Source of the DNA: Bacteroidota bacterium
GTDB taxonomy: Bacteria; Bacteroidota; Bacteroidia; Cytophagales; UBA9547
Assembly (NCBI GenBank): GCA_033763735.1
Contig: JANRJY010000026.1
Location: 101,343 to 165,342, forward strand
DNA: 64,000 bases
Reading direction: 5' to 3'
The notes beneath the pieces are model-generated. The model searched no databases. It was not told the DNA's origin and saw nothing but the letters and a program-made list of their open reading frames with translations. The translations under genes and the position numbers were made by a program. Below, piece by piece: positions 42,515 through 64,000 of this stretch (position 1 is the stretch's first letter; each line of letters opens with the position of its first letter).

Positions 42515-42529
42515 AGAAAACAAACAGAT

Positions 42530-43327: not shown

Positions 43328-43344
43328 TAATTTCTAAATTTTTG

Positions 43345-43380: not shown

Positions 43381-43389
43381 GAGCTGAAT

Positions 43390-43835: not shown

Positions 43836-43875
43836 AACGACAAAAACATTAAATTAAAAACAAAAACATTATAAA

Positions 43876-44058: not shown

Positions 44059-44309
44059 CAAAGGAGTACATCAAAGAAAAGTGCAGTAACTTGAGGTTGA
44101 AAATGGGATTGACTGCAAACATCCTAATTGCAACTATTTCTGCATCAATATTGAAAATTACAAGTTTCAGTTTTGGTCAATCATATTTTGATGGAATTGT
44201 TATAACTGTAGCAGGTATTTTGTCTTTAGTATTAATGAAATATTTTTTGGATAAAAATGCAGAATTAGATAAATTAACAGAAAATTTGAAAGAAAATGAA
44301 CCCAATTGA
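44055..44309 (+). CDS. Small membrane protein, hypothetical
   Basis: 84 aa with two hydrophobic helices and a charged C-terminal tail. Confidence 0.4.
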   Translation: MTKEYIKEKCSNLRLKMGLTANILIATISASILKITSFSFGQSYFDGIVITVAGILSLVLMKYFLDKNAELDKLTENLKENEPN

Positions 44310-44435
44310 AATATTTAGAATTGTAATGATACTATTTTTCGCATCATTAATAATCTATTGGGTTTATAGTATGGATACTGTAAAATCAAATAGTAAACAA
44401 TAGTGCCTTACAAAGTCTTTTCAGTTTATTCTTTC

Positions 44436-45383
44436 ATGAAATCATTCACTATTGCTTTTATTTCATTCATTATTCTTTCTTGTGGTCACGATGCCTCCAA
44501 AAGTGGTCAGGATACTGCAACTTATGGCACTGCCAAAATAGCTTCTGATGAATCATTCCAAAATTTGGTTGATGCGGAACTTATGGTGTTTCATGCGCAA
44601 TATACTAGCGCAGATCTTAAGGTAATTTATAAACCGGAAGAAGAAGCATTTTTGGATTTTTTCAAAGATAGTGTTCGGTTGATAGTAACCTCCAAAAGAC
44701 TAGCTCCTGCTGATTCTGAATCTTTAGTAAAATCTAAAATAATTCCAAAAACATTAAAAATCGCTACAGATGGCGTAGCCTTGGTTGTGAATAACAGTAA
44801 TCCGGATAGTATGCTCACTATGAAGCAATTAAAACAAATATTTGATGGAAGTATTACTCATTGGAAAGATTTAGGGAAGAGATCATTGAACGAAAAAATC
44901 CAAATTATTTTTGACAATAACAATTCCAGCAATTTGCGATTCGTTCGTAATGCATTTGAACTAAATACCATATCTTCAAACATCTATGTAGCAGGTTCGA
45001 ATAAAAAAGTAGTGGAATATGTATCTCAAAACAAAAACACAATTGGTGTCATAGGTTCAAACTGGATAAGCGATACAGACGACAGTACATCAAAGTCTTT
45101 TTTGAAATCTGTAAAAGTTGTAGCAATTTCATCCCTTGATATTCCAACAAGTGCCAACGATTATTACCAGCCATATCAGGCATACGTTGCCACAGGTGAT
45201 TATCCACTCAGTAGGAATGTATACATAATCAGTAGAGAAACCCGAACAGGACTTGGGACAGGATTTACTGCATTTTGTGCAAGTGAAATAGGACAAAGAA
45301 TTATATTAAAAATGGGTTTAGTGCCCGCCACAGCCCCTGTAAGAATTATAAAAACCAAAAACAAACCTTTAAGTGAACTTTAA
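44436..45383 (+). CDS. PstS-family (PBP-like) substrate-binding lipoprotein
   Basis: From the ATG at 44436: MKSFTIAFISFIILSCG lipobox. IFDGSITHWKDLG and GVIGSNW motifs of phosphate-binding-like PBP_like_2 domains. The track start (GTG at 44403) is less likely. Confidence 0.7.
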   Translation: MKSFTIAFISFIILSCGHDASKSGQDTATYGTAKIASDESFQNLVDAELMVFHAQYTSADLKVIYKPEEEAFLDFFKDSVRLIVTSKRLAPADSESLVKSKIIPKTLKIATDGVALVVNNSNPDSMLTMKQLKQIFDGSITHWKDLGKRSLNEKIQIIFDNNNSSNLRFVRNAFELNTISSNIYVAGSNKKVVEYVSQNKNTIGVIGSNWISDTDDSTSKSFLKSVKVVAISSLDIPTSANDYYQPYQAYVATGDYPLSRNVYIISRETRTGLGTGFTAFCASEIGQRIILKMGLVPATAPVRIIKTKNKPLSEL

Positions 45384-45393
45384 TACCAATCTA

Positions 45394-47175: not shown

Positions 47176-50100
47176 ATGAATCAAATATTACGCAACGCTA
47201 GAATTGTATTGTTTATCTGTATCAATACTTTATTTGCACAAATACCCACTACAAATTTAAGCCTTTGGCTAAGGGCAGATGCGGGATTAACAACCACTAC
47301 AGGAAGTGTAATTAATTCCAATTGGACAGATCAATCTCCTAACGGATTAATTATGACTAGAAATGGAAGTCCAACTTTAGTTACCATTTCAACTCTTAAT
47401 GGTCAAAGATTTGTTCGAAGTGCTGGAGCATATTTTACACTAAATAGTGGCGTTTTTAATTTTAATAAACTTACATTTTTTGCGGTTGCAAATATATCTG
47501 CAGGTGATATTTTTTATAGAGCAGGTGAATATGGATTTGGAATTGAATCAGGTAGTAGTGGTCGATTTTACATTAATTCAAGTGCGTCTAACAAAGTGAT
47601 ATACCCCAATTATTTCAATAATACATCAATATTTTTTGGTTCATACAATCTAAATTCAATCACTGGCTCAATTAATACAACTACGTTATCACCATTTGTA
47701 TATAATGGTGCTATGTCTTCAAGTGGGTTGCTGTATATAGGAAATGGATATGGAACTTTAACTGGAGATTTAGCAGAATTAATAATGTATAATGGGGAAC
47801 TTACTCCAAGTGAAAGAACTCAAGTGTACAATTATCTTTCAACCAAATATAATATTGGCATTCTTCCAAACGCCCCACAAATAAGTGCAATTGGAACTCA
47901 ATCGAGTTCTGAACCTACTTATGTGGGTACAAGAGTATCACTCGGAGGTTGCTTTGGCACCGGTGATATTATTACCGTTAGAGGAATTAATTTCAGTTCC
48001 GTAACCGGAGTTAGTTTGAATGGCAATTCTATATCGGGGATTACATTCTACAGTTCAAGTTTGATTGGTTTTACTTTACCTGATGCATCCACTTATCCCA
48101 CGGGAACAGATTTTACAGGGAATGTATCCATAACCAATCCATTTGGCACAGGTGTTTCTCCTTTACCTTTACAAGTAATTTATTGCCCTACCTCACCAGC
48201 AAGTGTTATTTCTGCTGCAAGGAGTGGTTCATTTGCTGTTTCAGGATCTGATTTAAGCCAAATTTCTTCTGTAACCATTGGGGGCTTTACTACTACCGGT
48301 TTTTATGACTCTTTTTCAAAAACATATCGAGTTACTATTCCTCCAACAATGCCACTTGGTAACCAAACGGTTACACTTATTCAGAATACGGTATTAGGTC
48401 CACAACCTTACGACTTGTTCAATCAAGTAAATATTGTCACTTCATTGCCATCTCCCATCATCACCAACATAGCCCCTCAAAAAGCCGCTGCAGGTAGCTT
48501 AATAACGATTAACGGATCCAACTTTGGCTCAAGTGTAGGCGATAATATTGTGAACTTTGGAGCGGTGAAAGGGTTAATAAATTCGGCTTCCTCAACACAA
48601 ATTACTGCAATAGCACCTGTTGGATTGACTCATGAAAACACCAACCTTTTAAATCAAAACTCAGGGTTGAGCACACAATACAACATTCCGTATTACAACA
48701 CTTTCACCGGAGGCGGAGGCATTACAACCAATACATTTGCTCCATATGTGTCATTTACTGAAGGATACTACTATGGGTATTTTAGTGCCATTGGAGACTT
48801 AAATAATGATGGAAGACCTGAAATAATTACCTCGCATTTTTCCAATAATGTGATTACTATTTTACAAAATGCAAGCACCGGCAATACCATTAATGGATCA
48901 TCTTTTCAAAGTTACTTTACACTGAATACCTCATCGAATTGTGGTCAAGTAATAATTAAAGATTTTGACAATGACAGTAGGTTGGATATTGGAGTATTTA
49001 ATTTTGGTGGGCAAATAAATATATTTAGAAATATCAGTAATGGCGGCAACCTTTCTGCTGCAAGTTTTGCTACACCTGTGGTTATAACTGTACCTGTTGG
49101 AGGATATGCATTTGATGCCGGGGATATGGATGCAGATGGTAAATTAGACTTAGTTGTGGCCGCATATGGCATCAACAATAATTTATATCTCTATAAAAAT
49201 CAATTTATTGCAGGTACCATTACCGGTAGTTCTTTTGCCAGTGCCGTTACGATTGGGTTTGGAACGGGAGCTTATCCATTTGAACTAAAAGTAGTAGATG
49301 TAGATAATGATGGCAAACCGGATATAACTACCATTAATAAGAACAATTCAGGAAATTCAACCATTTCTGTATTCCGAAACATTGCCACTACCGGAGTCAT
49401 CAATACCTCTTCATTGAATACACCGGTTACGTTTACCCTGCCTAATACAGCAAGTACGGCAGCTCCTGATCCGGTGCTGGGATTGGAATTTGCGGATTTT
49501 GACTCAGACGGTAAACTGGATATTGTAGCAAGTAACCCTACACAAAATTCCATTTCTATATTCAAAAACAAAACATCTGTGGGAACGATAAATAGTAGCT
49601 CTTTTAATGAAAGATACGACTATTCAACGGCTCTGAATCCTTACGGTGTAGCCGTAGGTGACTTAACGGGCGATGGCAAAATTGATATCGCTGTTGCAAG
49701 CTATAACGAAGCCAAAATAAGCTTACTTAGGAATATCTCAACACAGGGAACGCTTACAGGCAGCAGTTTTTCATCAAAAACCGACATCGCTTCTATTGGA
49801 ACAACCAACCTACAACCCCAAATTGTAGATATGGACGGAGATTCAAAACCGGAGGTGGTTGTTTCGAATTACAATAATTTTACTTCATTAGTTTTCAGAA
49901 ATTTGATTGATAATCCTGCATCCATTACAGGATTTAGCCCTAGTTCAGGATTGCCGCTGAGTCAGGTTACACTTACGGGTAACAACTTTAACAATGTCAC
50001 TCAAGTGCGCATGGGTACCATTACAGGAGGATCCATTTTGGCTGTGAGTAGCAATTATATTGTGGTTCGCATACCAGCAGGTGCTGCATCAAACAATATT

Positions 50101-53100
50101 TACTTGGTGAACAATTCAGGTTCGGAAGCAGGTACTTCCGGAATTTTTACTATTACAGGTGCTACCCCTTATGCCGTCATTACAAGTGTAAGCCCTATCA
50201 ACGCAAGTTTGGGCAGTAGTGTCGTTATTCAAGGAAGTGGATTTGACGCTATCCCAAGTTTGAATAATGTATGGTTTGGTGCAACTAAAATGCCTGTGAC
50301 CAGTGCTACCCTTAATCAAATGGTGGTTTCAGTAGTGGGTGGTGCATCAAGTTCCAAAATAACCTACCAAAATGCATACGGATTGAATGACCAATGGAAA
50401 TTGCCTTTTGGGTATTCGTTTAATGGAGGGAACATTGCAAGTGGGTCGTTTACAAACAATGCTACTCTAAATACTGGAAGTCTACCTTATAATGTAATTT
50501 CAAATGATTTGGATAGTGATGGAAAACCTGACTTGATTGCAACTAATTGGAATACGAGCTCTAATCATTTATCTGTTTATAGAAACAATAGTATAAATGG
50601 TACAATAACGGCTAGTTCATTTGCATTACCGTTCAACTTGAGTGGTTACACGGCTAGTAATCCGTTTCAAGCAGCTGTAGGCGATTTGGATGGTGATGGA
50701 AAACCTGAAATAGTATTACCATTTTACAATACTGGGTATTTCACTATTTTCAAGAATAACAGTTCCCCAACTACTCTAACAGCAGCTTCATTTTCTAAAA
50801 ATGACATTCAAGTTTTACCAACCGGATATGGTTCTTATGGGTCTGCGATTGCTGATATAGATAATGATGGGTTTAACGACATAGTGTTTAGTTCATATTT
50901 AAATAGTGGTATATTTATATATAGAAATCTAGGAAATGGACGCCTAGATGCCGGAGGTTTTCAATTTACAAATTTTTGGACTACAGGTGGCAACCCTTCC
51001 AATATTCAAATAAGTGATATTGATAGTGATGGCAAGCTGGATATTTTGGTAGGAAATACCAGTACAACTTACTTTTCTATTTTTAGAAATATTAGCACTG
51101 TTGGTGGAATTAGTGCCTCATCTTTAGCTACTAGAATTGATTTACAAACACCTAACAATCCATATGGGGTAACTTTTGCAGACCTCAATTCGGATGGCAA
51201 ACCTGAGATTATCAATACTAATTATTCCACTAATCAAATATCCATCTTTCAGAACAATTGCAGTACCTCAACAATAACAGCTTCGAATTTCAGCAGAATA
51301 GATTTGCCTTGTATTGCAAGTTCAGGTCCTTACGGTTTGCATTCAGGTGATTTGGATGGTGATGGTAAGCCGGAAATTGTTGTTACAAGTCAAAGTGTTA
51401 CTCAATACTCTGTTTTTAAAAACAATTTTACTGCGGGTAATATATCATCTTCTCAATTTTCAAGATATGATTTTAATAATTCCCAATTTTTGTCAGGAGT
51501 AGAGTTGGTAGATTTGGATTTAGACGGCAAACAAGAAATTGTGACCGCCAATACTAATGCCAATACAATTAATATCTTTAAGAATCAAATAGGAAATGGA
51601 CAAGTTCCCACGATTACCGGATTTAATCCTTCAAGTGGGTTGGCATTGTCAACTTTTGTTACGGTTACGGGAAATGGCTTTTCAAGCGCAAGTGGAGTTA
51701 CTTTGGCTAATGTTCCAGTGGCAAGTTTTAATGTAATTAATGCAAATACAATGGTATTCAGGGTACCAAATAGTACCATTTCAGGTAAAATTGGCATTGC
51801 GAATCAATTCGGAACGGTTGGGCTTTCAACAGCTGATTTTACAGTTACAGGTGCAGCCCCTATTCCGAATATTACCAACATAATTCCTTACAGTGGTAAT
51901 ACAGGTTCATCCGTAGTAATATCAGGAAGTGGGTTTGATTTAACCCCCAACAATAACATTGTTTTTTTTGGAGCCATGAGTGCTAATGTAGTTAGTGCGA
52001 GTGCTAACTCATTAACGGTAACTGTTCCTAATGGAGCGACTAATGAAAATGTGAGAGTCAGTAATATTTCATCGGGATTAATTGGTGAAAGCTACAAGCC
52101 ATTTGTTACAACATTCCCAAATTCGGGTACCATTACCGGTGCTACTTTTGCCCCTAGAGTAGATATTCCTTCGGAAGTAAATGTTATAGCTACTATATTA
52201 GCTGACCTTGATGGTGATGGAAAAAATGACTTAATCGCTTCAAATTATAATTACAACACCATTTGGGTTTATAGAAATACCGGAACAGGAGCCAACTTAG
52301 CTACTCAATTTGCCCCTAAACAAATATTTACAACCGGTTCATATGCATATAAAATGACCACCGGTGATATAGATGGAGATGGTAAAATAGACTTGGTAGT
52401 ATCAAACTATAATAACGCTTCTGTTTCAATATTTAAAAACACCTCATCGATTGGCGGAATTTCTCTTGCTCCTAAAGTTGATTTTATAACGGGTACCAAT
52501 CCTACAGGGGTTAAGTTGGCAGACCTTGACAAAGATGGAGCACTTGATTTGATTGTAGCTAATTACAATACTTCCGGTTTCTTTTCGGTATTTAAAAACA
52601 CTAATATTTTAGGAACCATTACTGGAAACACATTTGCCAGCAGGCAGGATTTCACATGCGATTACTATGCGTACGATATTACCGTTGGGGACATTGACAA
52701 GGACGGACTTCAAGATATTGCCATTGGCACTCAAAACACCAATATCATTGGCGTTTTTAAGAATATTAGCTCTTCTGGTTCTATTTCATTCAATCCAAAA
52801 GTTTCAGTTATTTCTCAGTTTTATCCATGGGATGTAAAATTATCAGATATTGATGGAGATGATTTCCTTGATTTGGTTGTTTCAAATTCAAGCTACAGTA
52901 CTATTTCTGTATTAAGAAATACAGGAACAATAGGTACAATAACAGCTTCCAATTTTGCTGCCCGACAAGATTATAATAGTACTTCAAGTAATTATTCTCT
53001 TGCCTTGTGTGATATTGATGGCGATGGTAAAATTGATATAACCAATGCAAGTAACGGCATTCAAACTGTATCTGTGTTGAGAAATGTATCAACTTCAGGA

Positions 53101-56100
53101 GGAATAAATGTCAACTCATTATCACCTAAAATTGATTTTCAAACAAACATTGGAAATTCATATTACCACACATTTGGAGATATTACCGGAGATGGACTAC
53201 CGGAAATGATTGTGCCACAATACAGTTCAGGGACTATTTCTATTTTCAAAAACATGACTGCTCCTAATCCTACAATCACCGGGTTTAGTCCACAAACGGG
53301 TACAATAAACGTAGATATAATTACTGTTTCCGGCTTTGGGCTTAATGGTGTAACAAAAATTCAAGTAGGTTCCGGTTTAACCTCAAATGTAACATCATTA
53401 GGATCAAATACTTTAATTTTCAAAGTGCCATTATTGGCAACTACCGGGTTGATAACAGCAACTAATTCATTTAACGCTTCAAGCATTTCTATAGCCACAT
53501 TTACAGTTTTAGGGCTCTCTCCATTGCCAATTGTAACTTCGGTTTCGCCAATTAATACCTCTAATTCTGATATAATTACCTTATCAGGAAGTGGATTCGG
53601 TACTGTATTGGGTCAAAATGTGGTATATATTGGTGCTGAAAGAGTTGTAGTTCAATCAGTAAATCAAAATCAGATTACCGTTCAAAACCAAATCGGTACC
53701 AATAATGGCGCAATTTCAGTAATTAATACAATCAGTGGTTTGCAAGGCATTGCCAATCAGTTTGTAAACAACACATTTTCGGGACCCAATACCATTGTAG
53801 GAGCCAGTTTTGCCCCTTATGTGTCAACCACTACCAATTGGAATTCTTATATAAGTGAAATAGCTGACCTGGATGGAGATGGGAAAAACGATTTGATTTC
53901 GGCTGGATATGGAAATAATAGCATTTCTGTTTTCAGAAATGTAAGTTCCGTAGGTGGCTTTTCATTTGCTACCAGGCAAGATTTTACAGTCGGTACTAAT
54001 CCATTTGGATTGGCTGTTGCTGATTTTGATAATGATGGACGTAAAGATATAGCAGTTGGCAACTATTCAAGTGGCAATATTTCATTATTTAAGAATATTT
54101 CAACAATAGGCAATATTGCTTTTGCAACACGAGTAGATATAATAACTACCAGTTTTAGTCCTTATGGTTTTATTAGTTCAGGAGACTTAGATGGTGATGG
54201 TTTTTTGGATTTAGCCATTTCAGGTTATTACAACAGTTCGATAGTTTTACTTAAAAACCAAGGAATCGTAGGAACGATTACCGGTGCGAGTTTTGGAAAT
54301 AGATTTGACATTACTGGCTACTCAAATATGTATGACGCTCAGATTGTGGATGTGGATGGCGACAATAAAAACGACTTGGTATTTGTGGCTACAGGAAGCA
54401 ATATATTAGCCATAAGAAAAAACATAGGCATTCAAGGCGATTTCAGTCTTTCAATGTTTGCACCTGCAATTACTTTTGGTACATCTACGGCTCCTACAAA
54501 GATGACAATCAGAGATTTGGATAGAGATGGAAAGCTCGATGTTATAGTTACAAATCAATCAACCAGTTTCTTATCTGTTTTCAAAAATAATACCGTCGGA
54601 AATACAATCACAGGAAGTTCATTTAGTTCTTTCACTATAGGTTCACAAGGTAATCCATTTGGAGTAACAAGTGCAGACATTGATGGAGATGGCAGGTTGG
54701 ATATTTTATATGGCAGTTACAATAATGCTAAACTATCGGTAAATCGAAACATAAGTACTATTGGTGGGTTATCAGCAGCATCATTCGCACCACGTGTTGA
54801 TTATACCTCTCAAGGAGGTATATATGGCGTAACAGAAGGCGACATAGATGGAGATGGAAAAACTGATATATTAGCTTCAATCTATAATACTAACACCCTA
54901 AACATTTTTAGAAATTTATCTGGACCAACGCCATCCATTACAGGATTTTCACCTCTTACCGGTACTGCCGGAATTACAATTGTTTCCATTTCCGGTTTTG
55001 GTTTTAACAATATTACCAGTGTTGGAATTGCCGGATTCATTTCTCCAAATTATACAATTTTAGGCAATAATGTGATATTAGCAAAAGTACCCATTTCTGC
55101 ATCATCAGGATTAATCACTGTAACTAATGTATTTTTTGCATCAGGAGTTAGTAATCAGTCATTTACAGTAACTGGTGCTTATCCTTATCCTAGTATTAGC
55201 GGAATTGTTCCAAATGTGGCTGCTGTTGGTGAAACTATCCAAATCAACGGTTCAAATTTTGGAGCTTTAACCTCATTAAATGATGTATTTTTTGGGAATA
55301 TAAAAGCCAATGTATCATTTGCTTCACCAAGCAGTTTGCAAGTTACAGTCCCTGTTTCAAGTGAATATAAAAACATACGTATCACCAATAAATTCAACCA
55401 ACTAGCATCTGAATATAATTACCCTTTCAATCCCACATTTGCCGGTATGAATACCATAACGGGAGCAACTTATGCTCCAAAAGTAGATCAAGCCATGGGA
55501 ATTGGCGCAGCATACAGATTGGCCGTAGGTGATATTGATGGAGATGGTAAACTTGATGTAATTACTGGAACCTACAATTCAAGTTATATTAGTATTTTTA
55601 GAAATATTTCATCGCCAGGAACTTGGACAGGCACCTCCTTTGCCCCTAGAGTGGATATTAATATTGGATACACTTATTTCCATGAAATTGAATTGGCGGA
55701 TGTTGATTTGGATGGAAAACTGGATATTGTTGTAGCACAATACAATAACAGTAACATATTTATTATAAAAAATAATTCAAGTCCTGGTAACCTATCAAAC
55801 GCCTCATTTTCAACTCCTGTCCAAATTGCAGGACCAACAAACACATATGCAGTTGAGGTAGCCGATTTTAATAATGATGGTTTTCTTGACTTAGCTGCCG
55901 CAGGTATAAGTGCTTCAGTCGTATCCGTATACCTTCACAATGGAGTTACAGGTACTATTACAGGCCAGACATATGCTTCAAAAATTGATTTCAATAATTA
56001 TTCCAATGTATATGATTTGGAAGCAGCTGATTTTAATGGTGATGGATTAATTGATTTAGCATCCGCAAATTATACCAATAACAATGTAAGTATCCTTCAA

Positions 56101-59100
56101 AACAGTTCTGTAAACAATAATATTTCATTTAGATCATCCGTGCCGTATTTTGTAAATCAACCGCTTTCAATTAAGGCCGTGGATATTGATAGAGATGGAA
56201 AATTGGATTTTGTTACAAATAGCTATAATACTTCTAATGTCTATATTTTTAAAAATAACCTTGCTACTAATACCATTACTTCAACATCTTTTGGAAATGC
56301 AGGTAACGGAATCACATTTGCAACAGGTGGAGCTAACTATGGTGTTGATGTATTTGACATGGATGGCGATGGCAAATTAGATGTTCTCAGCGGTAATTAT
56401 GCTGCAAATACGGTGTCTATTTTAAGAAATATAGGCAATGTTGGCACAATAACTTCAAGTACGCTTGCTACAAAAGTTGATTTAACCACAGCAGCATATC
56501 CATGCTATGTATTGGCAGCTGATTTGGATGGAGATACCAAACCCGACATCATAGTTCCAAATGCCAGTGCTAGTAATTTTTCAATAATCAGGAATAATTT
56601 ATCATTTAATCCTACAGCAACCGGAATGAATCCGAATCAAGGTTCCGTTTTTTCAATTGTTTCAATTAGTGGTTTTAATTTAAATTCAATCAATCAAGTT
56701 TCGATTGGAGGAGGCATTACTAATCAAATAACCATATTAGGTTCAAATGCGCTTCTTGCAATGATACCAATTAATGCTCAAAGTGGTAGTGTAATTGTAA
56801 CCAATTCCCAAGGAAGTACTTCAACTGTACCGGGTATATTTACAGTAAATCCGGTTATTTACCCAAGTGTAACTGGGATTTCACCTATTAATGCAGGGGT
56901 AGGCAATTCAATTATTATAAATGGTTTAAATTTTAGCACAATCGCAGGTAATAACATAGTTTATTTTGGTCCAGTGAGGGCTACTGTTACAGGAAGCACA
57001 ACTAACTTACTGAATATTAATGTGCCTTCAGGCGCAAATTATTCACAATTGGATTTATTAGTCACAGATAAAAATATGCGAGCCCAATCGAATGATAGAT
57101 TTAGCCCAACATTTGGTGGTAGTGGTACCATAGTAGGTTCTTCATTTGCAACACCCGTAACTAATAATGCTGGTTCAAGTCCATTTACAACCCATTTGGC
57201 TGATTTGGATAATGATGGCAAACCGGAAATAATAGTGACAAATTATAGTAGTGCAACTATAGGCATTTATAAAAATAATACAACCGGCAATACCATCACA
57301 GGAACCTCATTTTCAAACGTTTTGAATTTAAGTGGCTCATATTCCTCACCTGCTGATATTAAAGCAGTAGATGTAGATCATGATGGTCGCTTGGATTTGA
57401 TTATTTCGGATAATTCGCTTCAATCCATCTTTGTTTGCAAAAATACCTCATCTGGAGGTTCAATATCTTTTGCAGCCCCTCAATCATATGCAGTGCCAAG
57501 TGTTGGTTATGTTTATAGTCAAGGAATAGATGTAGCTGATATTGATTATGATGGATTTATGGATATAGTTGTTGCTTGTGGAAGTGCGAATAAAGTCTCA
57601 GTTTTTAAACATAATGCCGTACCAGGCATAATCAATGCAGCTACTTATAGTAATCGTACCGATTATAATACTTCAACAAATCCCATTTATGTAAAAACAG
57701 GTGATTTTGATAAAGATGGAAAAACAGACATTATAGTATCAAATTATGGAGCCAATAATGTTCAAATTTTCAGAAATACAGCAATCCAAGGTATTATTAA
57801 TGCCAGTTCATTAGCTGTGCCAATAACGATAACAGTGAGTACAAATCCTGCACAAATTACCGTTGGAGATATTGATGGTGATGGCTGGCTAGATTTTGTA
57901 GTTGGTCATTATACCACTAATCAGATAAATGTTTATAGAAATAACAATATTGCAAACACGATTACCGGAGGTTCATTTACACCAACCGTACTTACAACAA
58001 ATGCTCGACCTGCCGGTGTATTGCTTACCGATCTCGATGGTGATTCAAAAGTTGAAATCATCAATGGAGGCAGCGATAATGTTACTATTAGTGTTTTCAG
58101 GAATTTATCAAGTCCCGGCACTATAACTGCAAGTTCATTTGCCACTCGACTACCAATCAATGCAGGAATTACTGGGGCAACTTATTTTGCTTCTGGGGAC
58201 TTGGATGCTGATGGCAAACCGGAACTTATATTTCCAGGATATTTTAGTGCTCAATTAAGTATTCTTAAAAACCTTCAAACCAACTCCAACCTACCTACTA
58301 TTACTTCATTTACTCCAAATGCCGAACGCAAAGGCAGAACAATGACAATTGGAGGAAACAATTTTGTGGGTGTTACATCTGTGTCACTGAATGGCACAAC
58401 AATCCCTTATTTTGTCCAAAATACCAATACCATCTTAACAACCCTTACCGGCAATGCATCGAGTGGCTTGGTTTCAATTGTTGGTTTTGGAGGCAGTGGT
58501 CTTTCTGCTTTTGTTTTCACTGTTTTGGGAACTCCTGCTCCTTCTGTGGTGGGAATTAATCCTAATCCGGTATTGCAAGGGGGAGTTATTACAATCACTG
58601 GTGCGGAAGTAGAATTTTTGTTAAATCCGATTACCATTTCAAGTAATGTAATAAGCAATTATTTGTATAATTCTGCTGCAGGAACAATTATTGCTACTGT
58701 ACCAGGAAACGCCATTTCAGGTGACGTGAGACTTGCAACTTCTTTTGGAGGAATTTCTGTTATAAACACTAACTCATATTTAAATGTAACTCCTTTCTTG
58801 TTGCCTACAATTACCGGTTTCAATCCAACATCTGCATTGCCTGGAAGTTTGGTTTCTGCTTTAGGAAATAATTTGGTAAGCATTACCGGTTTTTCAATCA
58901 GTGGTGTTTCTATCTCTTTCAATGTTGTTAATTCAAGTTTGATAACATTCACGGTTCCTAGCGCATTAACAGGAAGGGCAAATGTTATCAATTACAGTGG
59001 TCAAACACAATCCTCTTCATTATTACAAATACTTACCGCACCTAATCCAAACTTTGGGAATATGTTATTGATGGATGGTAATAATAATCAAATAAATATT

Positions 59101-62100
59101 CCGGATAATAATGCAATAGATTTCACAAATAGCTTTACAGCTGAAGCTTATGTTAAATTCAACCAGATAACGAGAGCAACGGCTGGTTTTGATTGGCAAG
59201 CAATATTTACAAAAAACAACTATTCTGTTGGATATGGATTAATGTTGCAAACAGGAACTGCGCAAAAGAACTTAAGATTTTATCTAAACGGATGTACGCC
59301 ATCATTCGTAACGTATGACTGGACATCCAGTTTAAATCCTAATGTTTGGTATCATGTAACGGTGACATATGATGGATCAAGCGCCAAAATTTACATAAAT
59401 GGCAATTTGGTTTTAAACACTCCTGTATCCGGAAATGTGGCAACTAACAATAATGCCTTGACTTTAGGAGCAAGCCCAACAAATGGTCCTTATCCTTTGG
59501 ATGGTAGTTTGGATGAAGTTCGTTTCTGGAATATTCCTGTTTCAATTTCCGGAATTTCGAATAATAGATGTTCGGAAATCATTGGAAACGAACCCGGATT
59601 AGTGGCTTATTACCGCTTCAATGAGGCAACCAATTCTTTAACAGCATTGGATGCTGGTCCACTGGCTATTAATGGAACGCTTGCCAACTTTACTTTGCCT
59701 ACTCAAAGAATCAATTCTACTGCACTGTGCTATCCGATAAGTACAGTCACATCCATCAATCCAAATCCCGCAATTGGTGGACAAACAATTGTGACGCTTA
59801 ATGGATTAGCTTTCAATGCGATTACATCGGTTAAAGTTGGAAATGTTAACATGCCTAATTATACAGTTGCAGGAAATAATATTTATGTTTCAGTTCCGGT
59901 TACAATTACTTCCGGTAATATTATTCTGGATAATGGAGGGACATTAAGCACATCTACAGGAATTCTTTCTGTTGTAGGCTTAAATCCAACTATTTCTTCT
60001 ATATCCCCTTCTTCTGAACGACAAGGAAGAATTGTTTCAATTATTGGTACTAATCTGAATAATGCTACTCAAGTTTCTTTTGCAAATAATGTAAATGCAA
60101 CTTACGCAATAATTAATTCAACATTAATTGTAACAACCGTTCCCGGTGGGGCAATATCCGGATTAATAACCGTAACAAATATTGCAGGTATAGGAACAGG
60201 CACTTTCAATGTGCTTTCAACACCATCACCTATAGTTACAACCATTTCGCCTTCATTTGCTGTGAATGGTACTTTAGTAAATGTAACCGTTCTTGAACAA
60301 GAATATTTACAATCTCCTATTACTATTGGTGGCACTACAATCTCATCTTATACGCTTACCGGAAACAATTTAAGTTTCACTGTACCAGTTTCTGCTATTT
60401 CAGGTCATGTACGGGTTCGAACGCTTTATGGAGGTATATCATCTACTACAACAGGCTCATTATTAACTATATTACCACCTCCTACTATAACTGATTTCGG
60501 GCATGTTAACACAGGTGTAAAGCTTGCTTCAGGAGGATGCGGTTCTGGAAATCCGGATATAATTACTATTACAGGAAATGGATTTGCTCCCGGTAGCACT
60601 AGTGTTACGGTTAACAACTTTAATGTTGTCAATTATACAGTATCATCATCCAATTTAATTTATGCTGCAGTTCCTGATTTAGTGAACTTCCCCGGTCAAG
60701 ATATCACAGGAAAAATTAGAATTACCACACCTGCCGGAAACATTGCATCCATTGCTAATCTTACTGGTAAATTTTGTGTAATTACACCAACAACAACAGT
60801 TGGAGCAAGTTATGGAACCCAAATTGCAATCACTGGAAATGACCTTGCGAATGTAACCGGGGCAACCATAGGAGGAATAAATGCTACATATACTTACAAT
60901 AGCAGTCAACAAAAATTATATGTTACTGTTCCAACTAATGCACCTTCTGGAAACGTTTCTTTTGGATTAAGTCAAGGAAGTTATGTATATAATTTCCCTT
61001 TCCCTCTTTATATTTATCCAAAACCAACTGTTTCAGGTATCATTCCTAATCCGGCACCTATTGGTTCGATTATTTCAATCACTGGTATTCACTTGTTTAG
61101 TACCACTTCGGTTTCGTTTAATAATGCCGTACAAACTGTGATCAGCAATATAAATGACAACTTAATAACCCTGCAGGTTCCTACCGGTGCTAGAAATGGT
61201 GCATTAACCATATTTGCTATTGGAGGAAATGCAATAAGCCCGGTTTCGTTAACTATTGCACCTACCGTGACTTCTATTAATCCTAATGCAGCCGGGGTTG
61301 GTCAGCAAGTTGACATATTTGGCGAATCATTATCTGATATTACACAAGTACAGATAAATGGAATAAATGCACCGATTAATTTCAAAAATGCTACAAATGT
61401 GAACATAAATGTTCCTTTTGGTGCAACAAGTGGCAATTTGGTAGTTTTTACAGCTGGTTACACTTCTCCAGGAATATTCTTTACTGTAATACCTCCGCCT
61501 GTTATCAATAACATTTTACCTGCCAGTGCAGGCATCGGAGCATTTGTTACTATCATTGGTGACAATTTCTCATTATCCGGTACGAATACGGTTAACTTTA
61601 ATGGTTCAGGTACGGCAACCGCTACTATTTTAGGTCCAAACACTTTGATTGTGCAAGTACCAGGTACCGCTAGTACCGGATTTATTACTGTAACCAACAA
61701 TGGTGGAAGTACCCAAAGCAATATTCAGTTTGTCGTATTGCCAAGCTTAAGTGGGTCATTCTCCCCTATTACTGCCGGTTTGGGAACACAAATAAGTTTA
61801 TTTGGAAACAATTTGTTTAATCCTTCTTTAATCAGATTCAATGGTGTTGCTGCAACAAACTTTACATCTGTATCTTCATCCAGAATAGATGTAGTTATTC
61901 CTCCGGCAGCAGGAACCGGACCAGTTTCTGTCGATGTAACAACAGATGGTGGAACCTCTAATGCGGTCACTTATACAATATTAGGCATTCCTACAATTTC
62001 GAGCCACACTCCTTTAAGTGGCATTGCAGGAACGGTGGTAACAGTAAATGGAACGAATTTCTTGGCATCTAACAATGTATTGGTGAATGGGGCCACAGCA

Positions 62101-64000
62101 AATGTCCAATTCATTTCATCCAATCAATTGTTGGTTACAGTTCCATCTAATGTAAATGTTGGTGTAGGAAACATTCAAGTTCAAAATGCAGGAAATGTCA
62201 ATTTACAATCACCTGCCAATTATTCTAATAGTCCAAGCAGCTTCACTGCAATTCCGACAATTACACTTATTAAACAACCTTGCAATAACAATCAGATTTC
62301 AATAGGTATTTGGGGTCAATTGGTAAAAATAGAAGGTACTAATTTCTTGTCAGGCATGCAAATTTCCTTCAATGGGGTCACTTCATCATATAGTTCCGGA
62401 TATTTTATTTGTTTTGGCACTTACACTTCTTTTGGAAGTAATTCTCTATACACATTTATTCCTAATGGTGCCACATCCGGAAATGTTACAGTAATTACGC
62501 AAGGTGGCACTTCTAATACCATTCCTTTTACAATTATTCCACCTCCTACTGTAGGTTCATTTAGTCCAATTACAGGAATTGCAGGCACTTCTGTTACGAT
62601 CAATGGTACTGATTTCACTTCTGTAACTTCAGTTAATTTTAATGGTGCAAATGCATCGTTCACCCCTGTTAGTAGTACGCAACTAATTGCCTTAGTTCCA
62701 AACAACGCAGCCGCAGGCAAAATATCTGTATCAGCTTTTGGTGGCACCGGTCAAAGCTCAGTTAATTTTACACCTGTTCCGGTTATCACTTCAATTAACT
62801 ATTCCGAAGCACCTATTGGGTCTACAGTTAGAATATTTGGAACCAATTTATATGCTCCTACCGATATAGATTTTTCAAATAGTAATAATGCCAGTTCATC
62901 AAACAACAATATTACTTATTTGGATGTAGTGGTTCCTGCTAATGCGAATAATGGAGTGATATCGTTTACTAATGTGGGTGGAACCTCTGTATCACCATTT
63001 AACTTTATAGTAAGTACAATTACGGGCCTTAGCGCCAATACAGGAGTAGCAGGTACAATCGTTTCATTGACCGGTGTTGGAATCACTTCAGCAACTTCAT
63101 TCCAATTTGCTTCAACAAGTTCATTTTCAATAATATCTACTGCTACAGGAGTAGTAGTTGTATCGATACCCGGTACAGCTGAAAGTGGAGCAATAAGGTT
63201 GAATTTCCCTAATGGAGGTTTCACTACTATTGGTGGATTCAATCCAACACCTGTTATAACAGATGTAAGTCCATATACACATGGTACCAGTCAGTCAATT
63301 AATTTGATTGGAACCAATTTAAGACAAGTAATTGCAGCCAATTTTGGAGGTGTATTAACACAATCCAATTTAGGCGTTGCCAGTGGAAGTAATAGAAATG
63401 GAGTAAGAGTACCTAACAATGCACTATCCGGTATAATTAACATTACTGTTACAGGTGGGGGTACCGCTTCAAGTCCTTTATCATTTACTGTAATATCCAT
63501 TACCAGCATACTACCGACAACAGTACTTGGAGGAACCCAAATTTCAATTTTGGGTGCAAATCTTGACAATACTAGCTCAGTTGTAATTGGAGGAACAACT
63601 GTTGCCGGCATCAATGCAGCCAGCACTTCTAATTTGTTGATTACCACTGTTCCAAGTAATATTTCAAGTGGTGTTGTAGTTGTAAATAAAGGCGGTGGGT
63701 ATAACGATTCATATTCATTGAATTTGCCTAATGCCACCATTACTAGTGTCAATCCATTATATGGTCCTGTTGGAACAGTAATTACTATTATTGGAAATAA
63801 TTTTACGGCTTCAAGAAATGTTTATTTATACAATTCAAACCATAATCCGTTTAGCTATTCCATTCCTTATCAAGTTGTTACCAACCAACTTATTTTAGCA
63901 ACAATTACTTCAAATGTGATAAATGGGAATGTGTATGTAACAGGTCAAAACAACAATAATGCTGCTGGACCATTCTTTACCCTACCTCCAACATTAAATA
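47176..64000 (+). CDS. Giant secreted multi-domain protein (partial, 3' end beyond window): LamG / IPT-TIG / six FG-GAP-VCBS propellers / LamG / IPT-TIG array
   Basis: The ATG at 47176 directly follows an in-frame TAA (47173-47175). Frame 1 stayed open in every stretch I translated by hand. The track lists no frame-1 ORF after 47040, as expected if no stop occurs. The only plus-strand track ORFs in the region are four frame-2 ORFs of 67 aa or fewer. The N-terminus MNQILRNARIVLFICINTLFAQ is a signal peptide. Confidence 0.88.
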   Translation, partial: MNQILRNARIVLFICINTLFAQIPTTNLSLWLRADAGLTTTTGSVINSNWTDQSPNGLIMTRNGSPTLVTISTLNGQRFVRSAGAYFTLNSGVFNFNKLTFFAVANISAGDIFYRAGEYGFGIESGSSGRFYINSSASNKVIYPNYFNNTSIFFGSYNLNSITGSINTTTLSPFVYNGAMSSSGLLYIGNGYGTLTGDLAELIMYNGELTPSERTQVYNYLSTKYNIGILPNAPQISAIGTQSSSEPTYVGTRVSLGGCFGTGDIITVRGINFSSVTGVSLNGNSISGITFYSSSLIGFTLPDASTYPTGTDFTGNVSITNPFGTGVSPLPLQVIYCPTSPASVISAARSGSFAVSGSDLSQISSVTIGGFTTTGFYDSFSKTYRVTIPPTMPLGNQTVTLIQNTVLGPQPYDLFNQVNIVTSLPSPIITNIAPQKAAAGSLITINGSNFGSSVGDNIVNFGAVKGLINSASSTQITAIAPVGLTHENTNLLNQNSGLSTQYNIPYYNTFTGGGGITTNTFAPYVSFTEGYYYGYFSAIGDLNNDGRPEIITSHFSNNVITILQNASTGNTINGSSFQSYFTLNTSSNCGQVIIKDFDNDSRLDIGVFNFGGQINIFRNISNGGNLSAASFATPVVITVPVGGYAFDAGDMDADGKLDLVVAAYGINNNLYLYKNQFIAGTITGSSFASAVTIGFGTGAYPFELKVVDVDNDGKPDITTINKNNSGNSTISVFRNIATTGVINTSSLNTPVTFTLPNTASTAAPDPVLGLEFADFDSDGKLDIVASNPTQNSISIFKNKTSVGTINSSSFNERYDYSTALNPYGVAVGDLTGDGKIDIAVASYNEAKISLLRNISTQGTLTGSSFSSKTDIASIGTTNLQPQIVDMDGDSKPEVVVSNYNNFTSLVFRNLIDNPASITGFSPSSGLPLSQVTLTGNNFNNVTQVRMGTITGGSILAVSSNYIVVRIPAGAASNNIYLVNNSGSEAGTSGIFTITGATPYAVITSVSPINASLGSSVVIQGSGFDAIPSLNNVWFGATKMPVTSATLNQMVVSVVGGASSSKITYQNAYGLNDQWKLPFGYSFNGGNIASGSFTNNATLNTGSLPYNVISNDLDSDGKPDLIATNWNTSSNHLSVYRNNSINGTITASSFALPFNLSGYTASNPFQAAVGDLDGDGKPEIVLPFYNTGYFTIFKNNSSPTTLTAASFSKNDIQVLPTGYGSYGSAIADIDNDGFNDIVFSSYLNSGIFIYRNLGNGRLDAGGFQFTNFWTTGGNPSNIQISDIDSDGKLDILVGNTSTTYFSIFRNISTVGGISASSLATRIDLQTPNNPYGVTFADLNSDGKPEIINTNYSTNQISIFQNNCSTSTITASNFSRIDLPCIASSGPYGLHSGDLDGDGKPEIVVTSQSVTQYSVFKNNFTAGNISSSQFSRYDFNNSQFLSGVELVDLDLDGKQEIVTANTNANTINIFKNQIGNGQVPTITGFNPSSGLALSTFVTVTGNGFSSASGVTLANVPVASFNVINANTMVFRVPNSTISGKIGIANQFGTVGLSTADFTVTGAAPIPNITNIIPYSGNTGSSVVISGSGFDLTPNNNIVFFGAMSANVVSASANSLTVTVPNGATNENVRVSNISSGLIGESYKPFVTTFPNSGTITGATFAPRVDIPSEVNVIATILADLDGDGKNDLIASNYNYNTIWVYRNTGTGANLATQFAPKQIFTTGSYAYKMTTGDIDGDGKIDLVVSNYNNASVSIFKNTSSIGGISLAPKVDFITGTNPTGVKLADLDKDGALDLIVANYNTSGFFSVFKNTNILGTITGNTFASRQDFTCDYYAYDITVGDIDKDGLQDIAIGTQNTNIIGVFKNISSSGSISFNPKVSVISQFYPWDVKLSDIDGDDFLDLVVSNSSYSTISVLRNTGTIGTITASNFAARQDYNSTSSNYSLALCDIDGDGKIDITNASNGIQTVSVLRNVSTSGGINVNSLSPKIDFQTNIGNSYYHTFGDITGDGLPEMIVPQYSSGTISIFKNMTAPNPTITGFSPQTGTINVDIITVSGFGLNGVTKIQVGSGLTSNVTSLGSNTLIFKVPLLATTGLITATNSFNASSISIATFTVLGLSPLPIVTSVSPINTSNSDIITLSGSGFGTVLGQNVVYIGAERVVVQSVNQNQITVQNQIGTNNGAISVINTISGLQGIANQFVNNTFSGPNTIVGASFAPYVSTTTNWNSYISEIADLDGDGKNDLISAGYGNNSISVFRNVSSVGGFSFATRQDFTVGTNPFGLAVADFDNDGRKDIAVGNYSSGNISLFKNISTIGNIAFATRVDIITTSFSPYGFISSGDLDGDGFLDLAISGYYNSSIVLLKNQGIVGTITGASFGNRFDITGYSNMYDAQIVDVDGDNKNDLVFVATGSNILAIRKNIGIQGDFSLSMFAPAITFGTSTAPTKMTIRDLDRDGKLDVIVTNQSTSFLSVFKNNTVGNTITGSSFSSFTIGSQGNPFGVTSADIDGDGRLDILYGSYNNAKLSVNRNISTIGGLSAASFAPRVDYTSQGGIYGVTEGDIDGDGKTDILASIYNTNTLNIFRNLSGPTPSITGFSPLTGTAGITIVSISGFGFNNITSVGIAGFISPNYTILGNNVILAKVPISASSGLITVTNVFFASGVSNQSFTVTGAYPYPSISGIVPNVAAVGETIQINGSNFGALTSLNDVFFGNIKANVSFASPSSLQVTVPVSSEYKNIRITNKFNQLASEYNYPFNPTFAGMNTITGATYAPKVDQAMGIGAAYRLAVGDIDGDGKLDVITGTYNSSYISIFRNISSPGTWTGTSFAPRVDINIGYTYFHEIELADVDLDGKLDIVVAQYNNSNIFIIKNNSSPGNLSNASFSTPVQIAGPTNTYAVEVADFNNDGFLDLAAAGISASVVSVYLHNGVTGTITGQTYASKIDFNNYSNVYDLEAADFNGDGLIDLASANYTNNNVSILQNSSVNNNISFRSSVPYFVNQPLSIKAVDIDRDGKLDFVTNSYNTSNVYIFKNNLATNTITSTSFGNAGNGITFATGGANYGVDVFDMDGDGKLDVLSGNYAANTVSILRNIGNVGTITSSTLATKVDLTTAAYPCYVLAADLDGDTKPDIIVPNASASNFSIIRNNLSFNPTATGMNPNQGSVFSIVSISGFNLNSINQVSIGGGITNQITILGSNALLAMIPINAQSGSVIVTNSQGSTSTVPGIFTVNPVIYPSVTGISPINAGVGNSIIINGLNFSTIAGNNIVYFGPVRATVTGSTTNLLNINVPSGANYSQLDLLVTDKNMRAQSNDRFSPTFGGSGTIVGSSFATPVTNNAGSSPFTTHLADLDNDGKPEIIVTNYSSATIGIYKNNTTGNTITGTSFSNVLNLSGSYSSPADIKAVDVDHDGRLDLIISDNSLQSIFVCKNTSSGGSISFAAPQSYAVPSVGYVYSQGIDVADIDYDGFMDIVVACGSANKVSVFKHNAVPGIINAATYSNRTDYNTSTNPIYVKTGDFDKDGKTDIIVSNYGANNVQIFRNTAIQGIINASSLAVPITITVSTNPAQITVGDIDGDGWLDFVVGHYTTNQINVYRNNNIANTITGGSFTPTVLTTNARPAGVLLTDLDGDSKVEIINGGSDNVTISVFRNLSSPGTITASSFATRLPINAGITGATYFASGDLDADGKPELIFPGYFSAQLSILKNLQTNSNLPTITSFTPNAERKGRTMTIGGNNFVGVTSVSLNGTTIPYFVQNTNTILTTLTGNASSGLVSIVGFGGSGLSAFVFTVLGTPAPSVVGINPNPVLQGGVITITGAEVEFLLNPITISSNVISNYLYNSAAGTIIATVPGNAISGDVRLATSFGGISVINTNSYLNVTPFLLPTITGFNPTSALPGSLVSALGNNLVSITGFSISGVSISFNVVNSSLITFTVPSALTGRANVINYSGQTQSSSLLQILTAPNPNFGNMLLMDGNNNQINIPDNNAIDFTNSFTAEAYVKFNQITRATAGFDWQAIFTKNNYSVGYGLMLQTGTAQKNLRFYLNGCTPSFVTYDWTSSLNPNVWYHVTVTYDGSSAKIYINGNLVLNTPVSGNVATNNNALTLGASPTNGPYPLDGSLDEVRFWNIPVSISGISNNRCSEIIGNEPGLVAYYRFNEATNSLTALDAGPLAINGTLANFTLPTQRINSTALCYPISTVTSINPNPAIGGQTIVTLNGLAFNAITSVKVGNVNMPNYTVAGNNIYVSVPVTITSGNIILDNGGTLSTSTGILSVVGLNPTISSISPSSERQGRIVSIIGTNLNNATQVSFANNVNATYAIINSTLIVTTVPGGAISGLITVTNIAGIGTGTFNVLSTPSPIVTTISPSFAVNGTLVNVTVLEQEYLQSPITIGGTTISSYTLTGNNLSFTVPVSAISGHVRVRTLYGGISSTTTGSLLTILPPPTITDFGHVNTGVKLASGGCGSGNPDIITITGNGFAPGSTSVTVNNFNVVNYTVSSSNLIYAAVPDLVNFPGQDITGKIRITTPAGNIASIANLTGKFCVITPTTTVGASYGTQIAITGNDLANVTGATIGGINATYTYNSSQQKLYVTVPTNAPSGNVSFGLSQGSYVYNFPFPLYIYPKPTVSGIIPNPAPIGSIISITGIHLFSTTSVSFNNAVQTVISNINDNLITLQVPTGARNGALTIFAIGGNAISPVSLTIAPTVTSINPNAAGVGQQVDIFGESLSDITQVQINGINAPINFKNATNVNINVPFGATSGNLVVFTAGYTSPGIFFTVIPPPVINNILPASAGIGAFVTIIGDNFSLSGTNTVNFNGSGTATATILGPNTLIVQVPGTASTGFITVTNNGGSTQSNIQFVVLPSLSGSFSPITAGLGTQISLFGNNLFNPSLIRFNGVAATNFTSVSSSRIDVVIPPAAGTGPVSVDVTTDGGTSNAVTYTILGIPTISSHTPLSGIAGTVVTVNGTNFLASNNVLVNGATANVQFISSNQLLVTVPSNVNVGVGNIQVQNAGNVNLQSPANYSNSPSSFTAIPTITLIKQPCNNNQISIGIWGQLVKIEGTNFLSGMQISFNGVTSSYSSGYFICFGTYTSFGSNSLYTFIPNGATSGNVTVITQGGTSNTIPFTIIPPPTVGSFSPITGIAGTSVTINGTDFTSVTSVNFNGANASFTPVSSTQLIALVPNNAAAGKISVSAFGGTGQSSVNFTPVPVITSINYSEAPIGSTVRIFGTNLYAPTDIDFSNSNNASSSNNNITYLDVVVPANANNGVISFTNVGGTSVSPFNFIVSTITGLSANTGVAGTIVSLTGVGITSATSFQFASTSSFSIISTATGVVVVSIPGTAESGAIRLNFPNGGFTTIGGFNPTPVITDVSPYTHGTSQSINLIGTNLRQVIAANFGGVLTQSNLGVASGSNRNGVRVPNNALSGIINITVTGGGTASSPLSFTVISITSILPTTVLGGTQISILGANLDNTSSVVIGGTTVAGINAASTSNLLITTVPSNISSGVVVVNKGGGYNDSYSLNLPNATITSVNPLYGPVGTVITIIGNNFTASRNVYLYNSNHNPFSYSIPYQVVTNQLILATITSNVINGNVYVTGQNNNNAAGPFFTLPPTLN
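47245..47870 (+). other. N-terminal LamG/concanavalin-like jellyroll domain of the giant protein
   Basis: LSLWLRADAGL...NWTDQSPNG...NGQRFVRS...GDLAELIMYNGELTPSERTQVYNYLSTKY, the pattern seen at the start of many giant LamG-led surface proteins. Confidence 0.6.
47872..48705 (+). other. Three IPT/TIG-like domains
   Basis: Units start at about 47872, 48181 and 48460. An example is IITNIAPQKAAAGSLITINGSNFGSSVGDNIVNFGAVKG...SSTQITAIAP. Confidence 0.7.
48706..49905 (+). repeat. FG-GAP/VCBS propeller 1 (7 blades)
   Basis: Blade Ca-loop motifs GDLNNDGRPE, KDFDNDSRLD, GDMDADGKLD, VDVDNDGKPD, ADFDSDGKLD, GDLTGDGKID and VDMDGDSKPE. Each is followed by ...[IVL][FLY][RKQ]N. Confidence 0.8.
50430..51585 (+). 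repeat. FG-GAP/VCBS propeller 2 (7 blades)
   Basis: NDLDSDGKPD, GDLDGDGKPE, ADIDNDGFND, SDIDSDGKLD, ADLNSDGKPE, GDLDGDGKPE, VDLDLDGKQE. Confidence 0.8.
52125..53253 (+). repeat. FG-GAP/VCBS propeller 3 (7 blades)
   Basis: ADLDGDGKND, GDIDGDGKID, ADLDKDGALD, GDIDKDGLQD, SDIDGDDFLD, CDIDGDGKID, GDITGDGLPE. All seven were re-translated codon by codon. Confidence 0.85.
53790..54915 (+). repeat. FG-GAP/VCBS propeller 4 (7 blades)
   Basis: ADLDGDGKND, ADFDNDGRKD, GDLDGDGFLD, VDVDGDNKND, RDLDRDGKLD, ADIDGDGRLD, GDIDGDGKTD. Confidence 0.8.
55452..56595 (+). repeat. FG-GAP/VCBS propeller 5 (7 blades)
   Basis: GDIDGDGKLD, ADVDLDGKLD, ADFNNDGFLD, ADFNGDGLID, VDIDRDGKLD, FDMDGDGKLD, ADLDGDTKPD (re-translated). 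Confidence 0.85.
57125..58272 (+). repeat. FG-GAP/VCBS propeller 6 (7 blades)
   Basis: ADLDNDGKPE, VDVDHDGRLD, ADIDYDGFMD, GDFDKDGKTD, GDIDGDGWLD, TDLDGDSKVE, GDLDADGKPE (re-translated). Confidence 0.85.
58290..59030 (+). other. Three IPT/TIG domains after the last propeller
   Basis: ITSFTPNAERKGRTMTIGGNNFVGVTSVSLNG..., PSVVGINPNPVLQGGVITITG... and PTITGFNPTSALPGSLVSALGNNL... Confidence 0.75.
59035..59745 (+). other. Internal LamG (Laminin_G_3-like) jellyroll domain
   Basis: LLMDGNNNQINIPDNNAIDFTNSFTAEAYVKF...WQAIFTK...WYHVTVTYDGSSAKIYINGNLV...LTLGA...LDGSLDEVRFWN...GLVAYYRFNE. Confidence 0.8.
59746..64000 (+). repeat. Array of at least 17 IPT/TIG modules (about 81 aa / 245 nt each), continuing past the window edge
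   Basis: Module starts are at about 59750, 59980, 60228, 60480, 60780, 61020, 61260, 61497, 61740, 61985, 62250, 62535, 62775, 63010, 63245, 63490 and 63735. Each has the form [IV].[ST][IFV].P..[GA]..G..[IV].I.G.N[FL] ... and ends with a G-rich strand. Confidence 0.8.

Follow-up and report, generated by a model that had tools for sequence, protein, structure and literature searches.

A 2011 survey describes bacterial propellers of the integrin type as more regular and as present, in some cases, in two tandem copies (PMC3192720), and propellers of the VCBS type usually recognise carbohydrates (PMC9218822). In Vibrio cholerae the modular adhesins Bap1 and RbmC, as presented in an excerpt of PMC10102183, combine a beta-propeller with glycan-targeting and nonspecific surface-binding domains. 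In the literature we searched, we found nothing on propeller arrays longer than two. Here we analyse a 64,000-nucleotide stretch of DNA from a Bacteroidota bacterium (the window: assembly GCA_033763735.1, contig JANRJY010000026.1, positions 101,343 to 165,342 of the forward strand), in which one giant gene encodes six consecutive blocks of seven FG-GAP/VCBS blades, separated by pairs of TIG (also called IPT) domains. The six-propeller region is the N-proximal half of one 7,398-residue type IX secretion system (T9SS) cargo protein, and the propellers would probably serve as multivalent binding heads of a surface protein.

The gene is a single stop-free frame on the plus strand, which starts with the ATG at 47176 and is still open at the end of the window (63999), thus spanning 16.8 kb and at least 5608 residues. 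All 5608 visible residues are 100% identical to P0121, a protein of 7398 residues that is already deposited and automatically annotated (NCBI MDX2189123.1, 'MAG: FG-GAP-like repeat-containing protein [Bacteroidota bacterium]'), and whose gene lies on a 176-kb contig. P0121 was also the top match when the six aligned units were used as a profile in an exhaustive search of 1.84 billion cluster representatives. A first-pass annotation of the window had proposed six propellers in one polypeptide; this part stands, but that annotation saw only part of the protein, the C-terminal rest of which lies beyond the window. There, P0121 continues with about seven more TIG-like domains (about 24-25 in the whole stalk), a beta-helix-like region of about 750 residues and a T9SS type A C-terminal domain (CTD). 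The features of the gene within the window are as follows; open reading frame is abbreviated ORF, hidden Markov model HMM, immunoglobulin Ig and AlphaFold2 AF2, and P0122 is an orthologue described below.

47176..63999, + strand: giant ORF, cut by the window end (stop-free frame, identity to P0121)
47176..47238, + strand: signal-peptide-like N-terminus, MNQILRNARIVLFICINTLFA, with QIPTT following the putative cleavage site (sequence read by eye)
47239..47958, + strand: N-terminal domain of about 240 residues, no family match (Pfam and PDB sequence searches)
47959..48714, + strand: two to three TIG-like Ig domains ahead of propeller 1, the last of them confirmed by Pfam TIG (HMMs)
48709..49947, + strand: propeller 1, with predicted closure strand at 48709-48756 and seven blades at 48763-49947 (blade HMM)
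49957..50430, + strand: TIG pair of unit 2 (TIG HMM)
50470..51636, + strand: propeller 2, seven blades; the best-conserved unit in P0122 (blade HMM, comparison with P0122)
51637..52137, + strand: TIG pair of unit 3 (TIG HMM)
52123..53298, + strand: propeller 3, predicted closure strand and seven blades; no specific P0122 counterpart (blade HMM, comparison with P0122)
53299..53796, + strand: TIG pair of unit 4 (TIG HMM, AF2)
53779..54957, + strand: propeller 4, predicted closure strand and seven blades; modelled with AF2; matches the third P0122 propeller (blade HMM, AF2, Foldseek)
54961..55455, + strand: TIG pair of unit 5 (TIG HMM)
55450..56640, + strand: propeller 5, predicted closure strand and seven blades (blade HMM)
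56644..57120, + strand: TIG pair of unit 6 (TIG HMM)
57118..58320, + strand: propeller 6, predicted closure strand and seven blades; no specific P0122 counterpart (blade HMM, comparison with P0122)
58333..59019, + strand: three weak TIG-like domains after propeller 6 (self-built HMM only; not called by Pfam)
59074..59544, + strand: Laminin_G_3 (concanavalin A-like lectin/glucanase) domain (Pfam, E 9e-28)
59785..63960, + strand: stalk of about 17 consecutive TIG-like domains (Pfam, self-built HMM)

The blades were counted with an HMM built from the protein's own motif matches, with which all 5608 residues were then rescanned. It recovered 42 full-length blades, each with an E value of 1e-14 to 1e-26, exactly seven in each of six blocks (residues 530-924, 1099-1487, 1667-2041, 2219-2594, 2777-3155 and 3332-3715, which correspond to nucleotides 48763-58320), and no full blade elsewhere in the 5608 residues. 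This bears out the earlier count of six blocks of seven. By the curated Pfam cutoffs the protein belongs to the FG-GAP/VCBS superfamily: FG-GAP_3 (PF13517) scored 283 and 431 bits (cutoff 26.9; E 8e-86 and 5e-132), and FG-GAP (PF01839) 196 and 275 bits (cutoff 22.1; E 5e-59 and 6e-84). Pfam TIG matches had E values of 2e-29 and 2e-18.

Every one of the 42 blades has a DxDxDG-type cation loop between its strands 1 and 2. Aspartate occupies positions 1 and 5 of the loop in 42/42 blades and position 3 in 36/42, glycine occupies position 6 in 36/42, and position 9 is aspartate in 32/42, with glutamate in others (for example, DLNNDGRPE and DLDGDGKPE). The pattern D-x-[DN]-x-D-[GDS]-x-x-[DE], earlier ascribed to every blade, fits 38 of the 42; the other four have threonine at position 3, or asparagine or threonine at position 6. 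Likewise, the blade-end pattern [IVL][FLY][RKQ]N holds in 35 of 42 blades and is slightly too strict for the remainder, and the asparagine after strand 3 is present in 40. The blades missed by either pattern are single-residue variants. The most variable blade columns fall in the 4-1 loop with strand 1 and in the 2-3 loop, whereas the calcium loop and strand 3 hardly vary. Because these blades do not conserve the 'GAP' half of the integrin motif, they are best described as members of the FG-GAP_3/VCBS family.

The five linkers between consecutive propellers (159-174 residues each) all consist of two TIG domains, as recognised by a self-built HMM with E values of 1e-23 to 1e-29, in agreement with the proposed TIG pairs. 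The mean period of the array is 1673-1675 nucleotides (1.67 kb had been noted). An ITGF-type motif (P.ITGFSP in most units) opens each following first TIG domain, and the previously noted unit boundaries (starts at 49924, 51610, 53275, 54935 and 56615, and the end at 58289) lie 4-8 residues upstream of it. The start noted for the whole array, 48706, falls at the predicted closure strand of propeller 1.

The structure predicted for one unit supports this architecture. AF2, run on unit 4 with an alignment of 103 sequences, gave a model with a mean predicted local distance difference test (pLDDT) of 92.6 and a predicted template modelling score (pTM) of 0.89, in which two beta-sandwich domains are followed by exactly 28 strands. 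A Foldseek search of the PDB with this model matched ITFG2, BBS9/BBS1, CRTAC1, PVL, AAL-2, integrin alpha-V and TcB, with E values down to 3e-11 and template modelling scores, normalised to the target, of about 0.7 over about 400 aligned columns. A profile-based sequence search of the PDB found CRTAC1 (1.6e-18), integrin alpha-IIb and PVL. The strand count and the seven-bladed Foldseek matches thus agree, by prediction, with a propeller of seven four-stranded blades, and, together with the HMM results for all six blocks, the modelling supports six closed propellers of the FG-GAP/VCBS (integrin-alpha) type. The sequence also points to how the ring may close. In 6/6 propellers the seventh blade lacks the fourth strand ('SFAxRVDF') and runs straight into the ITGF-type motif of the next TIG domain, and in 5/6 blocks a partial match to the C-terminal strand of a blade lies directly ahead of blade 1. 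Read alongside the AF2 strand pattern, these features suggest a 3+1 velcro closure: the missing fourth strand of blade 7 would come from the strand that directly follows the second TIG domain.

The known structures share the fold and differ in architecture. CRTAC1 (PDB 9etn) is the closest solved structure by sequence, and together with the fungal lectins PVL (2bwr) and AAL-2 (4tqm), which bind glycans of the N-acetylglucosamine type, it is a good structural match; all three are secreted, calcium-containing, seven-bladed FG-GAP propellers, but each chain has just one propeller, and identity to the model in structural alignments reaches only 11-16%. The integrin alpha propeller, matched through alpha-IIb and alpha-V, likewise has seven FG-GAP blades with calcium-type hairpin loops on strands 1-2. 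In integrins, as is generally known, the cation motif is found on blades 4-7 only, whereas here all seven blades carry it. The protein also has six propeller copies instead of one and lacks the thigh and calf legs, the transmembrane helix and the beta-subunit context of an integrin: whole-protein Pfam scans returned FG-GAP, TIG, Laminin_G_3 and Por_Secre_tail alone and none of the integrin leg domains, and in place of the transmembrane helix and short cytoplasmic tail of an integrin alpha chain the protein ends in a T9SS sorting domain. The secreted adhesins Bap1 and RbmC also contain a propeller of the VCBS/FG-GAP type, but a single, eight-bladed one with an inserted beta-prism; they depend on type II secretion and are shorter than 1000 residues. 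They were not among the PDB matches of this analysis.

The six units are old, diverged duplicates of a whole TIG-TIG-propeller module. Pairwise protein identity is 31-37%; in the codon-aligned DNA it is 45-50% overall and 34-41% at third codon positions, and the longest exact runs shared between units are 12-20 nucleotides. Tandem Repeats Finder detected nothing relevant across the array, and a repeat finder returned only stretches of 24-83 nucleotides with 60-80% identity, lying over the calcium-loop codons. These results agree with the earlier view that the units are strongly diverged at the nucleotide level and stem from old duplication and not from recent slippage. A 21-mer that had been quoted as a shared run, however, has just one exact copy; two further copies carry one mismatch. 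Blades that occupy equivalent positions in different propellers resemble each other slightly but significantly more than blades from non-equivalent positions do (35.2% versus 31.7%, p = 6.5e-7), in keeping with an ancient duplication in which the seven blades were copied as one module.

We compared the units with those of P0122, an orthologue of 7376 residues (Logan assembly of SRR15359035) that is 43% identical to P0121, collinear with it end to end, and also has six propellers. Conservation is strongly unequal between units. Unit 2 is the best conserved (55-85% identity in 120-residue windows), and unit 4 (units 3 and 4 lie at 51637-54957 of the window) pairs with the third unit of P0122, with an offset of exactly one unit (-568 residues) and 62-72% identity. 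Overall, units 2 and 4 are 65-68% identical to their counterparts, and the propeller of unit 4 is 68% identical; synonymous sites between orthologous units are plainly saturated at such divergence. In contrast, unit 3 and propeller 6 show only the paralogue background of 33-45%, and propeller 3 is nearer to propellers of other proteins (46%) than to any in P0122 (38%). In the fragment P0235, a third relative, propellers 1 and 2 are retained in the same order, with 58% and 66% identity. The shifted unit 4 and the units 3 and 6 without counterparts, with six propellers kept in both proteins, suggest gain, loss or replacement of whole units with the total held at six; drawn from two and a half sequences, this is a lead only, and a small, testable evolutionary question. 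A stronger form of it, which we consider rather unlikely, is a cassette system, in which TIG-TIG-propeller units are gained, lost and swapped between lineages or paralogous adhesin genes and the number six is held by selection. If true, the protein would be an adhesin of several specificities, and its single heads would be replaced over time much as variable domains are in other surface proteins.

The ends of the protein point to export. The C-terminal sorting domain of P0121 is of type A (TIGR04183, 50.6 bits against a cutoff of 23; PF18962, 51.6 bits against a cutoff of 27) and ends two residues before the C-terminus (residue 1217 of a 1219-residue segment). The N-terminus has a basic n-region, a hydrophobic core and the sequence LFA followed by Q, with this glutamine at +1; glutamine at +1 after cleavage is the Bacteroidetes Q-rule, as given in an excerpt of PMC5837995. 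The protein sequence would thus fit the following course, modelled on what is known of the family: export by Sec, passage of the outer membrane through the T9SS, removal of the CTD, and then covalent attachment to the cell surface or release. On the cell, the beta-helix and the stalk of about 25 TIG domains would hold the six calcium-stabilised propellers, two lectin-like domains and the tip domain far from the surface; with C-terminal anchoring, the distal tip would be the N-terminal domain of about 240 residues. This domain (241 residues were searched) had no Pfam match even at E values up to 5 and no sequence match in the PDB. We had considered calling it a LamG-like tip and dropped this identity, because it does not significantly resemble the internal Laminin_G_3 domain. 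Residues from about 6300 to 7050 of P0121, which separate the TIG stalk from the CTD, contain repeats such as 'VRIRGNFVNNG...' that, by eye, have the look of a parallel beta-helix; the region was not called by Pfam or NCBIfam.

The propellers themselves would act as loosely coupled multivalent heads, binding through the face formed by the variable 4-1 and 2-3 loops. By analogy with other VCBS-type propellers the ligands would most likely be glycans or surface polymers, a best guess and only a guess. It is plausible that, as proposed in the first-pass annotation, every propeller binds independently and has a specificity distinct from the others. Consistent with independent and diversified heads, the most variable blade columns lie on the loops that form the ligand face of integrins, and the units differ strongly in their conservation relative to the orthologue. 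A two-propeller AF2 model is also consistent, albeit weakly, with this idea: the domains are confident (pLDDT 85), and the pTM is only 0.56.

Taken together, we favour, as likely, a giant T9SS-exported surface protein with six calcium-binding propellers as multivalent binding heads. Several points weigh against this. The sorting domain lies beyond the window and is tied to it only via the 100% identity over 5608 residues; the putative signal peptide was read by eye only; and no T9SS core genes were identified within the 64-kb window. Cargo with a type A CTD can be released instead of anchored, which leaves surface anchoring uncertain. Ring closure and the geometry of calcium binding are predicted, and the low pTM of the two-propeller model may merely reflect its alignment of nine sequences. 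Within the window, a 712-residue OmpA-domain protein (1485-3623) resembles CHU_0125/PorE at about 155-160 bits against cutoffs of 600-620, and is only a faint hint of T9SS-related envelope proteins. Bacteroidota near the Chitinophagaceae, such as this taxon, commonly have a T9SS.

The same export route could serve a different function. Giant gliding adhesins of the SprB/RemA kind, which are propelled along the cell surface and pull the cell over substrata, are generally known to be multi-thousand-residue, highly repetitive and T9SS-dependent, and the protein described here resembles them in its size (7398 residues), its repetitive Ig-like stalk and its T9SS dependence. Furthermore, an eight-propeller relative, P0123, bears the Joint Genome Institute name 'gliding motility-associated-like protein' and a type B CTD (TIGR04131). 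SprB-type adhesins, however, use the type B CTD and other types of repeats, whereas here only the type A domain was detected and the repeats are FG-GAP propellers, with no SprB-type repeat family in the Pfam scans. No gliding gene was seen adjoining the giant gene, and the orthologue lies in an unrelated neighbourhood. We therefore regard a role as a gliding track adhesin as unlikely.

We also weighed whether the propellers are catalytic or toxin-associated and not adhesive, since the Foldseek matches include the PL11 rhamnogalacturonan lyase 4cag, the aldos-2-ulose dehydratase 4a7k and the Tc holotoxin 6sue (TcB), and Pfam TcdB_toxin_midN scored 44-48 bits against a cutoff of 24.8. These structural matches are, however, weaker than those to non-catalytic FG-GAP propellers, and the TcdB_toxin_midN matches overlie the FG-GAP blades and contain no independently significant stretch. 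A TcB/Rhs component of a Tc toxin would be expected to have an RHS/YD cocoon and SpvB/TcB-specific regions; the domain scans found no RHS/YD, SpvB, lyase or hydrolase domain across all 7398 residues, and the only neighbours of the repeated module are Ig-like and lectin-like domains. A catalytic or toxin function is thus very improbable. Finally, it is hardly credible that mis-assembly or very recent slippage produced the six-fold repeat: the source is a metagenome-assembled genome, and repetitive genes are generally prone to mis-assembly, but the low DNA identity and short exact runs between the units leave nothing for an assembler to collapse or expand, the frame stays open throughout, and P0122, assembled independently, is collinear over its full length and likewise has six propellers.

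The protein belongs to a widespread group. At E <= 1e-3 the unit profile matched 221,636 cluster representatives, of which 33,721 also passed E <= 1e-30. Among the best 150 representatives, for which propellers were counted, 125 had three or more propellers (with 6-7 detected blades each), at least 30 had five or more, and 12 had six or more. P0127 has seven propellers and P0123 has eight (56 blades), and P0125, P0126, P0131 and P0135 have six each, so that, with P0122, homologues with the same unit count do exist. The spacers in these relatives are one or two TIG domains. Ten multi-propeller relatives were inspected for their tails: eight end in type A and two (P0123 and P0129) in type B T9SS sorting domains. 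Single-unit proteins of 550-950 residues, with TIG, propeller and T9SS tail, are very common in Bacteroidota, Ignavibacteria and related groups. A cultured RefSeq example is WP_269562411.1 of Hymenobacter canadensis (2350 residues), with four TIG-propeller repeats, two TIG domains and a type A-like tail. Its gene (NZ_CP114770.1, 7579-14631) lies on a 38.7-kb plasmid, between IS3 and Tn3 transposases, which indicates that multi-propeller adhesin genes can be plasmid-borne and are potentially mobile.

The view that such a string of propellers is an unusual architecture could therefore not be upheld, given the many relatives with five to eight propellers, the deposited protein and the cultured four-propeller Hymenobacter. 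Multi-propeller arrays are deposited and automatically annotated, and the literature we searched contained no experimental study of these proteins; the protein described here is a new, large member of the group. With the multi-propeller T9SS cargo of Bacteroidota and allies it shares the module (one or two TIG domains, then a seven-blade FG-GAP_3 propeller), the calcium-loop consensus and, putatively, a signal peptide, and, with most of them, the type A CTD. It is among the longest (7398 residues), has TIG pairs throughout, and adds the N-terminal domain, the Laminin_G_3 domain, the stalk of about 25 TIG domains and the beta-helix-like region. It opens no new category and touches no long-standing open problem. 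It is, however, a clean example of how Bacteroidota concatenate a common single-unit cargo (TIG, calcium propeller and T9SS tail) into proteins with up to eight heads. Freshwater and soil metagenomes contain many such proteins, and the ligands of their propellers would shed light on the way in which these bacteria adhere to particles, polymers or other cells.

Elsewhere the window holds ordinary chromosomal genes (SdhA, PBP2, RodA, DnaJ). Its SdhA is 79-80% identical to those of lake Bacteroidetes metagenome-assembled genomes and about 75% identical to those of Chitinophagaceae, and the host is an uncultured member of the Bacteroidota, probably from freshwater. A scan of species-representative genomes with the last 400 residues encoded in the window gave no match, which places the source species outside that collection, and neither P0121 nor the upstream TPR protein had an exact match in a contig index. 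No Rfam family or tRNA gene was detected in the window. An ExbB-ExbD-ExbD-TonB-PstS-like-TPR cluster (40368-47040) lies immediately upstream of the giant gene, on the same strand. A functional link to this cluster was considered and dropped: the cluster is not conserved beside the orthologue, so its adjacency is probably incidental, and we treat the giant gene as a stand-alone unit. Two further ORFs gave weak family matches. For a 128-residue ORF at 39804-40190 the match was to NF041425, the model of the OS_HP2 family (seleno)protein, with 51 bits where the cutoff is 100, and a 1105-residue ORF at 5362-8679 had, as its only NCBIfam match, a weak TolB-like propeller repeat.

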